DNA of 64,000 nucleotides, from assembly GCA_041306605.1 (NCBI GenBank), contig JBFZFB010000166.1:1807-65806 (forward strand), written 5' to 3'. A program made the translations under genes and the position numbers. Below, piece after piece: positions 57,026 through 63,631 of the stretch. Each line of letters opens with the position of its first letter. Position 1 is the first letter of the stretch. The notes beneath the pieces are model-generated. The model made no database searches. It saw nothing but the letters and a program-made list of their open reading frames with translations, and had not been told where the DNA came from. The DNA comes from Lentisphaerota bacterium. Its GTDB lineage: Bacteria > Verrucomicrobiota > Kiritimatiellia > UBA8416 > JAQBFJ01.

Positions 57026-58453
57026 TTATTCCACTTTTCCGATCATATAAAAATCGTCTTCCGACCGGTCGTCCGTTTTGCCGTCTATTATTTTCTCCAC
57101 GCTATCAACCGTTTCAACAACCTTCACATATTGCCCGCGCCGGCCGGTGAATGATTCGGCAACAAACATGGGCTGGGTAAGAAAATACTGAAGTTTTCTT
57201 GCCCGTTCATAAATTGTTCTATCAGCCTTTGACAATTCGTCTATGCCTATAACCGCCACAATTCTTCTCAATTCTTCATATTTTGTAAACATTCTGAGCA
57301 CTTCCTGAGAGATATCAAAATGCCGCTGACCAACAATACTGGCGTTCAGGTTTGAACATGATGACGCAAGGCAGTCGATACCGGGATACATGCCTAACTG
57401 CGTTCTTTCACGAGAGAGCACCATAACGGCATTAAGATAGCTGAATATCGCCACCACCGCCGGGTCGGTCGTGTCATCGGCCGGAACATAAACAGCTTCA
57501 AAGGCGGAAACCGAACCCTTGATGCGTTCATGCACATCACCTACTTCCGAGCTCATTGTTGGCTGATAACCTGTTTCCGAAGGAGTGCGTCCAAGCAGTG
57601 TTGATATTTCAGCGCCAGCCTGAACGAACCGGAAAACATTATCAATAAACAACAGAACTTCGGTTCCCTGTTCCTGCAGATATTCCGCCATTGTAATACC
57701 TGTTAAAATAACATTAAAGCGCGCACCGGGCGGTTCATCCATTTGACCGAACGCCATCATAATTTTCTTAAGAATACCCGCCTGTTCAAATTCATGATAC
57801 AGCTCATTACCCTCTCTGATACGCTCGCCCACACCTGTAAAAACACACGCGCCTTCGTGCTCTTCCACGATATTATGAATCAATTCCATGATAAGCACTG
57901 TTTTCCCGCAACCTGCACCCCCGATGATGCCTGTTTTGCTTCCGCGAACGACAGGAAAGAGCAGGTCCACGATCTTGATGCCCGTTTCAACAACCTCAAC
58001 CTTGTTTCCAGCCAACCCGGCTATATCCATCTTTACTTTGGATGTATCTTTATGTATCGGCCTGAACTGCTTGCACTCAAGAGGCCCGCGCCCGTCAACC
58101 GGCTCGCCCATGACGTTAACAATTCTTCCAAACAACTCTTCGCCAACCGGTACAGTCAAAGTCTGCCCCATTGATGTTGCAACAGCGTTCCTCTGCAGAT
58201 TAAGCGTTGACGCCATTGAAACACATCTGGCGATATTGCCTTCAAGATGTTCGGCCACCATTAAAGTTATTTCCCTCTTGTCAAACGTTGTAACCTTAAT
58301 GGTTTCATGCATATCAGGCATGTCTTCAATCACTTCAAACCTGACATCAACAACCGGCCCTTCAACCGCAACCACCTTGCCTTTTTTTAATTTAACTTCA
58401 GCAACTTGTCCTGACATATGGCCCCCTTGTCCAGCACGCGGGATATGACTCAC
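57026..58453 (-). CDS. atpD: F1 ATP synthase beta subunit
   Basis: [45 protein letters not shown] (P-loop GGAGxGKT, catalytic-beta signature) and DELSEED-region equivalents. N-terminal extension: the ORF begins [16 protein letters not shown]; the alternative start at the second Met lies about 58417. Confidence 0.9.
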
Positions 58454-58481
58454 AGCCTAAAACCAATCACCCACCCATGAA

Positions 58482-60720: not shown

Positions 60721-62205
60721 TTATTTCAAGCCTTTCTCCGCAAAATAAGCCTTTATCGCTTTATCTATACTGTCAGCCACATCCGGCGTAAACTCGGTAC
60801 TGACATTAATTTTATCGATTAAAGTTTTATCATATCCAGAGGCAAATGAAAAAATTTCCTTAAAGAAACGGATCTGCTGATCGTTCGGAACACCCATAAG
60901 CACACCTTTGTCCACCGCGTAAAGCAGGACGACTTCTTCCGCCAGAGACACAGGCACATTCTCTGCCTGTTGAAACATCCTCTTTATTATTTCGCCCTTC
61001 CGCACGACCTTTTCAGCCTCACCGGAAATACCTGTTGAAAGCTTGCTCAATTTAGCCACTTCCGAATAACGCGCGTAATCGGAACGGAGACTTCTCGACA
61101 AATCTTTAATGATTTTAGGTTGAGTACGCCCGCCGACAATCGACAGCGAAATGCCTACATCTATGGCCGGCCGGGCGCCTTCGGCAAATATCACACTGCT
61201 CAAACAAATCTGACCGTCACACATGGAAGACAAATTGGAAGGAATGTATCCGGTAAGATCGTTCTGCAGTGTTTCCGCGATACCGAGAAATGTCATTGAA
61301 CCATTGCCGTGATGTTCGTTGAATTTACCGGCACGCTCCATAAGCTGGGTATGCAGCCAGAATATATCGCCGGGATATGCCTCCCTGCCCGGCGGACGTT
61401 CAAGCAGAAGAGATAACTGCCGGTACGCCCACGCGTGTTTTGTCAAATCATCAAAAACAATCAGAACATCCTTGCCTTTTGACGCGAAAAAATCACCGAT
61501 CGAAGCCGCTGTAAACGGAACAATATACTGCTCGCCGACAGGTGCGTTATCAGTGGCCACAACCATGCATGTATAATCAAACGCGCCTACTCCTTGGAAC
61601 AATCCGGCAACTTTTTCCAGCGATGAAACAGATTTCCCGACACAACAATAGATACAAATAACATCCCGCCCTTTCTGGTTTAAAATAGTATCTATCGCCA
61701 CAGTCGTTTTGCCGGTCATACGGTCGCCAAGAATCAACTGCCTCTGCCCTTTTGAGATAGGAATAAGCATATCAACTATTTTAGTGCCTGTGGCCATTAC
61801 CTCTTTAATCGCCGCCCTGTGTGTTATCGGCGGCGCATCTCTAAAAACAGCCACATGATCTTCAGGCACAATCGGATCTCCGCTGTCGCACGGATCACCC
61901 ATGGCTGTTACCATGCGGCCAATCAGCGAATAACCTACCGGTATTTTAAAAGGCTCGCTTATCCCAATGACTTCCTTGCCCATTTTGAGCTTCGAGGGGT
62001 CACCCAGCGCCAAGGCCATAACCTCTTCTTCATCAAACCCCATGATAATGCCTTTGACACCGTCACCAACATCTACAATCTGGCCGTAAAGACATGTCGG
62101 CAAACCCTCAATACGGATGATGATTTCCTTTATGTCCTTGATTCTGCCCTTTTCCTGGACTTTTATTTTAAATAACGGAACGCGTGAACCGGGCAAGCTG
62201 CTCAT
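60721..62205 (-). CDS. atpA: F1 ATP synthase alpha subunit, paralog 2
   Basis: 494 aa, LILGDRMTGKTTVAIDTILNQKGRDVICIYCCVGKS... (alpha-type P-loop GDRxTGKT, not the beta GGAGVGKT), plus ...FDDLTKHAWAYRQLSLLLERPPGREAYPGDIFWLHTQLMERAG. Confidence 0.85.
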   Translation of the reverse strand: MSSLPGSRVPLFKIKVQEKGRIKDIKEIIIRIEGLPTCLYGQIVDVGDGVKGIIMGFDEEEVMALALGDPSKLKMGKEVIGISEPFKIPVGYSLIGRMVTAMGDPCDSGDPIVPEDHVAVFRDAPPITHRAAIKEVMATGTKIVDMLIPISKGQRQLILGDRMTGKTTVAIDTILNQKGRDVICIYCCVGKSVSSLEKVAGLFQGVGAFDYTCMVVATDNAPVGEQYIVPFTAASIGDFFASKGKDVLIVFDDLTKHAWAYRQLSLLLERPPGREAYPGDIFWLHTQLMERAGKFNEHHGNGSMTFLGIAETLQNDLTGYIPSNLSSMCDGQICLSSVIFAEGARPAIDVGISLSIVGGRTQPKIIKDLSRSLRSDYARYSEVAKLSKLSTGISGEAEKVVRKGEIIKRMFQQAENVPVSLAEEVVLLYAVDKGVLMGVPNDQQIRFFKEIFSFASGYDKTLIDKINVSTEFTPDVADSIDKAIKAYFAEKGLK

Positions 62206-63631
62206 TCAAGCCCTCCTTAGCACTATCTGACATTTTAGTGGTTTCCATTAACTCTTTAACCAAATCTGGACGGTTTTTCTTAACCTGATCGACAAAAGCC
62301 TGCAACATGCTTTTTACATTTACGGCATCCATGTTATCCAAAAAGCCCTGCTGACGGGCAAAAAGAATTATCACCTGATCTTCAAGCGGCACAGGGCGGT
62401 TTTCATCCTGTTTCAAAAGCTCCTCCAGACACTTGCCTTTCTTCAGCCGGCCTTCCACCTCCGCGGAAACACCAGCCTTTATACGCGTCATCTTCTCCAG
62501 TTCCTTATGCCTGATGTAATCCATCTTAACCATGCTTGCCTGTTTCTTCATGGCAGGCCACTGGACCTTGCTGCCAATACGTGAAACTGAAAGCCCCATG
62601 TCTATTGCCGGTTTGAAACCCGACCCGAACAGTGAGTTGCTCAAATATATCTGACCATCCGTCATCGAAATGATATTTGACGGAATGTATCCGGCAAAAT
62701 CACCTTCAAGCGTTTCCACTATGGGCATGTGCGTCATCGTCCCGCCACCACGTTCCATTTTTAACTTCCCGGCGCGCTCAACAAGCTGAGAATGTATATA
62801 GAAAATATCACCCGGATAAGCATCCCGGCCCGGCGCACGCTCGAGAAGCAGTGATATCTGCCTGTATGCCCACGCATGCTTCGTAAAATCATCAAAACCA
62901 AGAAAAACATGCCCCTTTTTCTCATACATAAAATATTCACCAAGACTGGCCGCAACGTACGGACACAAGTATTGCTGACCCATCGAATCAGCCGCGGTGG
63001 CGGCAACAATAATGCCGTAATCCCATATGTGATGTTTGTCAAAAATTTCTATCACCCTGTTAAGCGCGGCCTCCGACTTGCCTATACATACATATATACA
63101 TATAACATCACGCCCCTTCTGATTGATCATGGCGTCAAGAATAACCGTCGTTTTCCCCGTCATACGGTCACCCAGCAGCAACATTCTCTGCCCGCGACCA
63201 ACCGGCAGTGTCATGTCTATTATCTTTGTGCCTGTCTGAAAAACCTCCTTCAACGGTGTTCTTTCCAGAACTGACGGCGCCTTGTGAAAAATGGGATAAG
63301 TCATTGTTTCCTTTATCGCGCCGTTGCCGTCTATCGGCTCGGCTAAAGCGTTTACACGCCTTCCGATAAAAGCGTCTCCCACCGGAACTCTGAAATCATC
63401 AATCGTCGAAACCACTTCATCGCCCGGCTTGATGGCGCCATGCGACTGAACAACAAGAACAAGCACATAATCACCATCAAAACCGACAATCAACCCCTTG
63501 GAGTGCGATGCAATCTGAACCATTTGACCATTCATACAGTTGGTCAAACCTGTGACGTTGATAACATCCTGCCGGATTTCAGCCACAATACCATGTTCTT
63601 TGATTTGAAGAAAATTGATTTTTAAAGCCAT
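62168..63631 (-). CDS. atpA: F1 ATP synthase alpha subunit, paralog 1
   Basis: 487 aa, LLLGDRMTGKTTVILDAMINQKGRDVICIYVCIGKS...FDDFTKHAWAYRQISLLLERAPGRDAYPGDIFYIHSQLVERAG. Roughly half its residues are identical to paralog 2 by eye. The 3' end overlaps paralog 2 by 38 nt. Confidence 0.85.
   Translation of the reverse strand: MALKINFLQIKEHGIVAEIRQDVINVTGLTNCMNGQMVQIASHSKGLIVGFDGDYVLVLVVQSHGAIKPGDEVVSTIDDFRVPVGDAFIGRRVNALAEPIDGNGAIKETMTYPIFHKAPSVLERTPLKEVFQTGTKIIDMTLPVGRGQRMLLLGDRMTGKTTVILDAMINQKGRDVICIYVCIGKSEAALNRVIEIFDKHHIWDYGIIVAATAADSMGQQYLCPYVAASLGEYFMYEKKGHVFLGFDDFTKHAWAYRQISLLLERAPGRDAYPGDIFYIHSQLVERAGKLKMERGGGTMTHMPIVETLEGDFAGYIPSNIISMTDGQIYLSNSLFGSGFKPAIDMGLSVSRIGSKVQWPAMKKQASMVKMDYIRHKELEKMTRIKAGVSAEVEGRLKKGKCLEELLKQDENRPVPLEDQVIILFARQQGFLDNMDAVNVKSMLQAFVDQVKKNRPDLVKELMETTKMSDSAKEGLNEQLARFTRSVI

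Follow-up and report, generated by a model that had tools for sequence, protein, structure and literature searches.

A cluster of F-type ATPase genes lying directly ahead of a secretion operon raises the question of what it serves: the energy metabolism of the cell or the secretion apparatus next to it. Such a cluster occupies positions 57026-63631 of the minus strand in a 64,000-nucleotide (nt) stretch of DNA (here referred to as the window) from a Lentisphaerota bacterium (contig JBFZFB010000166.1). To our knowledge, rotary F-type ATPases, the classic energy converters, have hardly been found repurposed outside the mycoplasmas. Our analysis points, with a probability of roughly 0.6, to a Kiritimatiellia version of a non-chemiosmotic F-type ATPase module that is built into an operon resembling those of type II secretion systems (T2SS) and type 4 pili (T4P). 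Most of this estimate attaches to the module being non-chemiosmotic and functionally part of the secretion/pilus apparatus, and far less of it to any specific coupling. The cluster is probably a repurposed motor rather than the energy-conserving ATP synthase of the cell.

An earlier reading of the letters alone (here called the sequence-only reading) had described seven minus-strand genes in the order alpha1, alpha2, epsilon, c, b/delta hybrid, gamma, and beta. That order held: the open reading frames (ORFs) form a continuous run in this sequence, followed by gspE, and each was identified with Pfam and NCBIfam, with scores judged against the model cut-offs.

62168-63631, minus strand: alpha1; ATP-synt_ab match at 7e-68, together with the _C and _N domains; 511 bits to TIGR00962 (atpA), cut-off 484
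60721-62205, minus strand: alpha2; ATP-synt_ab match at 8e-67, with the same domains as alpha1; 475 bits to atpA, slightly under the cut-off (484)
60479-60706, minus strand: epsilon; 75 amino acids (aa), beta-sandwich domain only (PF02823, 3e-14)
60260-60475, minus strand: c; PF00137, a 71-aa helical hairpin
59454-60200, minus strand: b/delta hybrid; 248 aa, with an N-terminal transmembrane (TM) helix and an OSCP match
58482-59408, minus strand: gamma; PF00231, divergent, 63 bits against the TIGR01146 cut-off of 194
57026-58453, minus strand: beta; 551 bits to TIGR01039 (atpD), cut-off 463

By these matches, the module encodes a complete F1 head made of a catalytic beta and two alphas, a gamma/epsilon stalk, a c-ring subunit, and a single b/delta stalk. 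The atpD score agrees with the claim of a single bona fide beta. The position of epsilon before c and its reduction to the beta-sandwich were confirmed, as was a hybrid stalk protein in which one TM helix is combined with the C-domain, but not the N-domain, of delta.

We assembled about 90 related loci and annotated their gene order with the window's own proteins. One public contig (L001) carries an identical alpha1 and extends past the end of the window. Three loci (L002 to L004) were found by exact-protein look-up, one (L005) by an alpha2 search of genome contigs, and 80 (L006 to L085) in metagenomes, by a search seeded with the gamma alignment. Homologs of alpha1 and gamma are numerous, are 59 to 82% identical to the window proteins, and belong to metagenome-assembled genomes (MAGs) named Kiritimatiellae, Lentisphaerae, or Verrucomicrobiota, in keeping with the placement in the Planctomycetes-Verrucomicrobia-Chlamydiae group that the sequence-only reading implied. 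Loci of a second kind, here called Omnitrophota type (L086 and L091 to L095 among them; seven were counted in all), are described below.

Comparison of gene order in related genomes, which the sequence-only reading had recommended, gave the same arrangement in every locus long enough to show it: an anchor protein (described below), alpha1, alpha2, epsilon, c, b/delta, gamma, beta, GspE, GspF, and GspG, followed by further pseudopilins, GspK, PilMN, the protein p206, and a MORN-repeat protein. The order is kept even in loci with as little as 48% gamma identity. In all 47 loci with a visible downstream gene, gspE comes after beta, directly in 46 of them and after an insert of about 2 kb in the other (L036, positions 3138-5183), which is the sole break in the series; two further apparent breaks were resolved as an ORF-calling artifact (L075) and a split gspE (L048). 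GspE stays attached to beta even in five loci in which gspF and the later genes lie elsewhere (L047, L051, and L076 among them), so the tightest linkage is that of anchor, ATPase, and GspE. Gaps within the operon are short, in the range of tens of bases. A scan for promoters and terminators gave hits at chance level, and the terminator-like hits all fell inside genes, none of them parting the ATPase from the gsp genes. The gap between beta and gspE in the window measures 37 nt, slightly less than the 39 nt first given. The adjacency itself had been seen correctly and listed as one point among several; it is in fact the defining feature of the cluster. These data indicate that the arrangement is not a product of chance, since it recurs in every related locus of sufficient length, and that a larger anchor-ATPase-GspE/F/G-pseudopilin operon contains the ATPase genes as a constant internal section. 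In the window, the part of this operon downstream of beta is made up as follows.

55354-56988, minus strand: GspE/PilB-type hexameric assembly ATPase with an MshEN-type N-domain, 37 nt downstream of beta
54126-55325, minus strand: GspF/PilC-type platform protein with three TM segments, by family match
53595-54011, minus strand: GspG major pseudopilin (TIGR01710, 128 bits against a cut-off of 89)
53183-53752, minus strand: minor pseudopilin; because the N_methyl motif does not appear until residues 56-81 of the ORF as listed, translation probably begins further downstream
52503-53183, minus strand: minor pseudopilin, whose orthologs give weak T2SSJ matches
51790-52506, minus strand: GspK-like minor pseudopilin, by Pfam
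50349-51845, minus strand: PilM-PilN fusion (GspL-like) platform protein, by family match
49729-50349, minus strand: p206, a 206-aa single-TM protein with no family match, conserved at this place in several loci
48167-49669, minus strand: 500-aa membrane protein that has MORN repeats at its C-terminus; the conserved block ends with this gene

The GspE and GspF proteins find their best matches in the GspE and GspF models, yet fall under the respective cut-offs (544 against 630 and 377 against 424). The position of p206 suggests a GspM/PilO-like role. Neither the secretin GspD nor GspC was found by Pfam among 27 non-ATPase ORFs of the window, and their genes may lie elsewhere in the genome. The MORN protein has one TM helix and at least six MORN repeats and also stands at the end of the block in at least seven related loci (L019, L032, L034, L061, L064, L069, and L082); it is unusual to meet a MORN protein beside T2SS or T4P genes. 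One Kiritimatiellia-like locus (L004, positions 19642-20550) and most Omnitrophota-type loci (L086, L092, L093, L094, and L095) carry a Peptidase_MA_2 gene between gspF and gspG, which is absent in the window.

The two alpha genes are what most clearly sets the head apart. Both had been described as diverged paralogs that share the P-loop GDRMTGKT and overlap by 38 nt, and all of this was substantiated: the proteins are 45% identical over 424 residues, both carry the motif, and the ORFs overlap by 38 nt. Alpha1 is followed by alpha2 in all 39 loci that could be compared, with a median spacing of -38 nt, and the overlap couples translation of the two genes. The difference between them lies in the arginine finger, which we located by alignment to solved F1 structures. 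The corresponding segment reads SVSRIG in alpha1 and SLSIVG in alpha2. The finger arginine is present in alpha1 in 28 of 28 orthologs, while the same position of alpha2 holds Ile or Val in 39 of 39; the P-loops of the alphas are intact. The sequence-only reading had proposed that a degraded active site in one alpha would mark it as a pseudogene. Alpha2 does lack the arginine finger, but the inference drawn from it fails, as the substitution is fixed and the ORFs are intact. With its P-loop intact and the 38-nt overlap conserved as well, alpha2 is best predicted to be a specialized, conserved nucleotide-binding subunit that would be unable to complete a catalytic site, and not a pseudogene.

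The remaining subunits are conserved in a similar way. Beta is the catalytic subunit, with the Walker B Asp and the DELSKAD loop present, and 49 of 49 orthologs keep its P-loop, catalytic Glu (GERxRE), Walker B, and adenine-pocket motifs; its translation may in fact begin at an ATG that follows the GTG by 12 codons. No protein of the cluster is better conserved than the c subunit (76 to 90% identity across loci), which has the RNP loop in 44 of 44 and the helix-2 Glu (VFAES) in 43 of 44 Kiritimatiellia orthologs. The b/delta protein resembles only the C-domain of delta, carried on a b-like helix, and has an invariant LEIDGSL motif. Its best NCBIfam match is the long b subunit of the N-ATPases (TIGR03321), under the cut-off, and a single-sequence AlphaFold2 model shows a helix over residues 2-162 and a C-terminus of low confidence (predicted local distance difference test score below 50 for residues 218-248). 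Alpha1, alpha2, and the single alphas of the Omnitrophota type are about 10 to 20 residues shorter at the N-terminus than canonical alphas, the shortfall in alpha1 and alpha2 being about 15 to 20. The N-terminal tail of alpha normally contacts the N-domain of delta in F1Fo, so the absence of the one and the absence of the other are mutually consistent. Dozens of loci carry the seven ORFs intact, at 45 to 90% identity, and the gene set is under purifying selection.

Two details of the smaller stalk genes deserve mention. For epsilon, a mechanical ORF listing gave a TTG start at 60643. The homologous start is an ATT at 60706-60704 (minus strand) with AGGAG ahead of it, probably read as an AUU start codon; the TTG start would cut off conserved N-terminal strands. 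The aligned start codon is ATT or ATC in five loci (ATT in the window, L015, L030, and L035; ATC in L008) and ATG, GTG, or TTG in most others, and the recurrence of a noncanonical start suggests that translation of epsilon is deliberately kept low. The C-terminus of gamma (positions 58482-58545 of the window) is a Lys-rich extension (…KGIKEKKRKKKQRQEAKAA) that would reach past the usual end of the central shaft. It is kept as KxKKKK in Kiritimatiellia orthologs and is absent from Omnitrophota-type gammas.

No a subunit accompanies these genes, and that part of the sequence-only reading was borne out by every search. No ORF for it was found in the window or in the 2 kb further upstream that L001 provides, Pfam gave no a subunit among the ATPase genes and most window ORFs of at least 110 aa, and the annotated loci of both lineages have no PF00119 match within about 10 kb on either side. 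A profile built from the atpB genes of L087, L088, and L089 was also run against all ORFs of at least 45 aa in 872 kb of linked loci and the window; at E<=10 it returned no atpB-like ORF, and it did recover the control loci L087, L088, and L089, where atpB lies next to c. Without subunit a, there would be no canonical ion path. Moreover, the ion-binding carboxylate of c is replaced by Gln in two of the seven Omnitrophota-type loci (VFAQT in L091 and VFAQS in L093), so ion binding is seemingly not essential to the function of the family. The two variant c genes lie at about 8930-9150 (plus strand) of L091 and at 8947-9162 of L093; the former had been overlooked by the gene caller, which called an ORF on the opposite strand instead.

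The Omnitrophota-type loci came to light through alpha2. An exhaustive HMMER comparison of alpha2 with representatives clustered at 50% identity returned fragments and one full-length relative (P0242) before the ordinary alphas. P0242 is 44 to 48% identical to alpha1 and alpha2, and many of its homologs are named Candidatus Omnitrophota. The loci concerned have the order epsilon, c, b/delta, a single alpha, gamma, and beta, with no PF00119 gene, and in seven of seven this a-less ATPase stands in front of GspE/GspF. Beta is followed there by an MshEN protein and/or a GspE with PilZ, then by GspF, and later by Peptidase_MA_2, GspG, pseudopilins, GspK, and PilMN. The PilZ domain is at the C-terminus of GspE, which is often preceded by the separate MshEN protein, and the two features suggest control by cyclic di-GMP. 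The single alpha has its arginine finger in 12 of 12 cases. In a phylogeny including both paralogs, as the sequence-only reading had asked for (a simple neighbor-joining tree with Kimura distances and 100 bootstraps), 97 of 100 replicates place alpha1, alpha2, and the single alphas of the Omnitrophota type in a single clade; the three possible branching orders within it were returned 56, 24, and 19 times.

ATPase genes beside pilus genes have been reported from this lineage before. Seymour et al. (2023, Nat Microbiol; PMC10066038) describe "non-respiratory" F-type ATPase genes adjoining type-4a pilus clusters in Omnitrophota, with the ATPase within 10 kb of a pilus cluster on 57 of 66 contigs. 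The arrangement that the sequence-only reading called unusual is thus not wholly without precedent. The parts of that article consulted here make no mention of a missing a subunit, Glu-to-Gln variants of c, an anchor module, or tandem alphas, and our literature searches returned no description of a Kiritimatiellia counterpart. What was already known is thus the association of non-respiratory F-ATPases with type-4a pilus loci in Omnitrophota, and no earlier account turned up of the Kiritimatiellia form, the paired alphas, the a-less gene set, or the anchor module.

The two systems share the alpha clade, which is set apart from the respiratory alphas, the a-less subunit set, the position before GspE/PilB and GspF/PilC, the pseudopilin, GspK, and PilMN genes downstream, and a homologous anchor module upstream. 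The window also has the traits that mark the Omnitrophota loci, with type-4 filament genes well within 10 kb of the ATPase (the 37-nt gap) and an association with giant or large ORFs, seen in the anchor homology and in large upstream genes of related loci. The differences are that alpha is duplicated in the window and moved to the front of the cluster, that alpha2 has no arginine finger, that gamma has the Lys-rich tail, that GspE has no PilZ domain, and that the anchor is a separate two-repeat protein of 437 aa instead of the C-terminus of a giant ORF. The hosts differ as well, a Kiritimatiellia-like polysaccharide degrader here and an ultra-small putative symbiont in Omnitrophota.

The anchor protein is the one component of the conserved block that lies ahead of the ATPase genes.

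63683-64000, minus strand: C-terminal part of the anchor protein (u437), which runs off the window; the full gene, of 437 aa, is at 1102-2415 of L001

The protein has a signal peptide, two tandem modules that each combine a beta-sandwich with a helical part, a C-terminal TM helix with the conserved pattern TW..I..GFL...LLFF.RW, and a short cytoplasmic tail. It matches no Pfam or NCBIfam family, in the case of Pfam even at E<=10. All but one of 28 loci have its gene upstream of alpha1. In L001 it is preceded by a gene for a coiled-coil protein, and neither of the two is atpB. A profile of the anchor matches the last 250 or so residues of giant ORFs in L091, L094, and L095, and also standalone proteins of 271 aa (L093) and 268 aa (L092) in the same position (hmmsearch 1e-40 to 1e-55; 99.9% probability in hhalign). 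A homologous membrane anchor is therefore encoded directly upstream of the ATPase in both lineages, and in Omnitrophota the module would tether the giant protein. Giant ORFs of 3298+ to 7326 aa lie upstream of the ATPase in four of the five Omnitrophota-type loci whose upstream region is visible. Those of L091 (1-8658), L094 (1-8809), and L095 (1-8416) end a few bases before the ATPase genes, and that of L093 (1-7071) ends a few bases before the standalone anchor gene that precedes the ATPase. Among the Kiritimatiellia loci, L004 has a 3700-aa Laminin_G_3 protein (1-8488) just ahead of the anchor gene, and large upstream genes are also found in L025 (1308 aa), L051, and L076.

Measured against the canonical F1Fo enzyme, beta and alpha1 score above the equivalog cut-offs of atpD and atpA, respectively, and gamma, the epsilon N-domain, a c hairpin with Glu and RNP, a b-type TM helix, and the delta C-domain are all recognizable. 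In contrast to that enzyme, there is no a subunit in cis, the order of the genes is distinct and embedded in a gsp operon, and the delta N-domain, the alpha N-tail, and the C-terminal helices of epsilon are missing. The three equivalent, finger-bearing alphas of the canonical head are replaced by two alpha types, one of them fingerless (Ile or Val in 39 of 39), and there is no separate delta whose N-domain could bind the alpha N-termini. The next full-length relatives that contain an a subunit, by HMMER rank, are two uncultured loci, L087 and L088, which were not resolved as a sister group in the tree. Each has a compact F-type operon of a, c, a 242-aa b, alpha, gamma, and beta (8296-13686 in L087 and 7798-13188 in L088). 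They resemble the window cluster in the b protein of about 242 aa that replaces b and delta, in the short alpha N-terminus, and in about 41% identity to both alpha1 and alpha2; they differ from it in having atpB directly upstream of c, no called epsilon, a housekeeping context, and no gsp genes. A further relative, L089, has a fully canonical operon.

The other known classes that we considered were rejected. The N-ATPases (Dibrova et al. 2010; PMC2881411) share with this cluster a long b of about 246 aa with a delta-like C-terminus and the absence of a separate delta, but the alt_F1F0 models score far too low (457 to 469 against 750, 496 against 752, and 57 against 225), atpQ, atpR, and atpB are absent, and the gene order differs from beta-epsilon-Q-R-a-c-b-alpha-gamma. 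Helix 1 of c, with the sequence judged by eye, has no Gln at the position expected for a Na+ site. The V/A-type models likewise lie far under their cut-offs, so the earlier statement that the layout is unlike both the N-ATPase and the V/A type holds good. Membership in the FliI/SctN class was dismissed on scores of 150 to 190 bits against cut-offs of about 380 to 715, and on the presence of c and epsilon genes. The Type 2 and Type 3 F1-like X0 ATPases of mycoplasmas, the gliding motor of M. mobile and the MIB-MIP-associated ATPase, are also F1 derived, with alpha, beta, gamma, and epsilon-like subunits, and are a-less, not chemiosmotic, and tied to a surface machine (PMC3369863, PMC12994834). 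Their seven-gene clusters have no homologs of c, b, or delta, and three unrelated proteins take their place (PMC3369863, PMC12994834). The window proteins score well under the corresponding models (MMOB1660, 388 against 600; MMOB1670, 409 against 850; MSC_0619, 285 against 520; MSC_0618, 397 against 570), and c and b/delta are present. The alphas and beta are nearer to canonical atpA and atpD than the mycoplasma proteins are, and the ATPase here is paired with a T2SS/T4P-type apparatus of a diderm, so that any resemblance to the mycoplasma systems would be one of logic only.

How such a module might work can be sketched from its parts. We infer that the complex would act as an ATP hydrolase only, because it has no subunit a. 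Beta would hydrolyze ATP at interfaces completed by the arginine finger of alpha1, and the alpha2/beta interfaces would be inactive. Alpha2 would bind nucleotide and make the head asymmetric, and it would probably provide a unique docking site for the single b/delta stalk. Within the membrane, the rotor of gamma, epsilon, and the c-ring would turn or come under torque relative to the b/delta stator, and a membrane partner encoded in the same operon, most likely either the TM helix of the anchor or the GspF/GspL platform, would receive the work. In this way the ATPase could help to drive or gate the assembly, secretion, or movement of an apparatus made of the pseudopilus and the large protein, much as mycoplasmas power surface machinery with F1-like ATPases. 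A more specific version, to which we give well under even odds and which we put forward tentatively, is that the T2SS/T4P-like machine took in the a-less F1 and c-ring to serve as its second motor, driven by ATP and acting by rotation or torque, with the alpha1/alpha2/beta head driving the c-ring and the c-ring acting mechanically on the anchor TM helix or on GspF. If true, this would be a new route for bringing the energy of cytoplasmic ATP across the inner membrane, and would parallel, as an independent event, the way in which type III secretion and mycoplasma gliding took over parts of F-type ATPases.

Several considerations weigh against a non-chemiosmotic module in the secretion apparatus. 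An atpB gene may exist elsewhere in the genome, as the searches covered linked loci. The Kiritimatiellia c subunit, with its Glu and RNP kept and its rank as the most conserved protein, is what would be expected of an ion-translocating c-ring that has a conserved partner in the membrane. The taxonomic labels of the related loci are MAG names only. Because the Kiritimatiellia loci all belong to a single clade, shared descent rather than selection could account for some of the synteny; the Omnitrophota loci argue against a purely inherited synteny. On three points we infer only: how rotor and partner are coupled, in what ratio alpha1 and alpha2 occur, and what the anchor TM helix does. The opposing view would be that of a genuine ion-translocating F-ATPase whose a subunit is encoded elsewhere and which is co-regulated with the gsp genes, for example one that by ATP hydrolysis builds the membrane potential that a T2SS needs in a fermenting anaerobe. 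Other bacteria are known to have split atp operons, and a T2SS needs proton-motive force besides ATP. The near-complete retention of the c-subunit Glu and RNP in Kiritimatiellia orthologs that are 76 to 90% identical, a near-canonical beta and alpha1 that pass the atpD and atpA cut-offs, and a b-type TM anchor all agree with an ion pump, and PulF has reportedly been proposed as an ion channel (PMC10790770). We nevertheless consider an ion pump unlikely: the linked loci of two lineages lack atpB across 872 kb, whereas the nearest unlinked relatives carry it beside c; two of the seven Omnitrophota-type loci have lost the c carboxylate to Gln; loss of the alpha2 arginine finger is fixed; gspE is always linked to the ATPase, including in loci whose gspF and later genes lie elsewhere; and the published account of a cultured relative, Kiritimatiella glycovorans, assigns chemiosmosis to a V-type ATP synthase together with Rnf (PMC5148204).

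If the module does belong to the secretion apparatus, it need not be a continuous rotary motor. It could be a secretion-type ATPase complex like FliH/FliI/FliJ, which might serve to activate the GspF platform, to load it, or to prepare the large upstream protein for export by unfolding it. The b/delta hybrid mirrors the organization of FliH, which Pallen et al. (2006) reportedly described as b-like plus delta-like, and the linkage to a secretion machine and a large membrane-anchored protein fits such a role, as does an asymmetric head with a dead site, which is less suited to smooth tri-site rotation. The alphas and beta do match FliI/SctN at 1e-45 to 1e-57, as expected from shared ancestry, but their scores are three- to fourfold under the cut-offs. 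The head is built of separate alpha and beta subunits and is not a homohexamer, and the strict conservation of c and epsilon, both missing from type III secretion ATPase complexes, implies a membrane rotor; we therefore hold this alternative to be quite improbable. Practically no weight is left for a functionless, decaying duplicate of an atp operon with a pseudogenized alpha2. The missing arginine finger, the missing subunit a, and an epsilon that is truncated and has an ATT start in the window could be read as decay. The seven ORFs are intact, however, in dozens of loci at 45 to 90% identity with invariant catalytic and structural motifs, the alpha2 substitution is fixed and not random, the alpha1/alpha2 overlap is conserved, and the module is kept in a second phylum; judged by such conservation data, the idea of decay is refuted.

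As the loci show, a complete F1 with a c-ring and a stalk but no ion channel is a fixed component of secretion/pilus operons in two bacterial lineages. In one of them the head is predicted to be asymmetric by construction, since one of its alpha types is fingerless. This raises the questions of how an F-type rotor is used without subunit a, how a hetero-alpha head works, and how giant surface proteins are coupled to energy in Omnitrophota-like bacteria. Omnitrophota have not been isolated, but the Kiritimatiellales have cultured members (e.g., Kiritimatiella glycovorans, PMC5148204); should these carry the operon, the Kiritimatiellia version could be an experimentally tractable entry point. 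A practical caution is that genes of this kind should not be counted as an "F-type ATP synthase" in metabolic reconstructions of MAGs from the Planctomycetes-Verrucomicrobia-Chlamydiae group.

Outside the operon, positions 1432-39281 of the window are dominated by polysaccharide-degrading enzymes, including glycoside hydrolases (GH) of families GH116, GH123, and GH95, rhamnosidases of GH78 and GH106, and two SASA esterases; a 1536-aa surface-type protein is encoded in the same region. This content is in line with a Kiritimatiellia-like glycan degrader, which would export enzymes of this kind through its T2SS. Three paralogs of the URO-D family stand among these genes (18208-19389, 26692-27732, and 33022-34119), and in L002 a URO-D gene adjoins one for a B12-binding protein, which hints at methyltransferase-type (MtaA/CmuA-like) functions rather than heme synthesis. 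A BRO-N domain protein (40057-40905) lies about 0.7 kb from the only tRNA gene of the window (41628-41700), and the pair may be the remnant of a mobile element.

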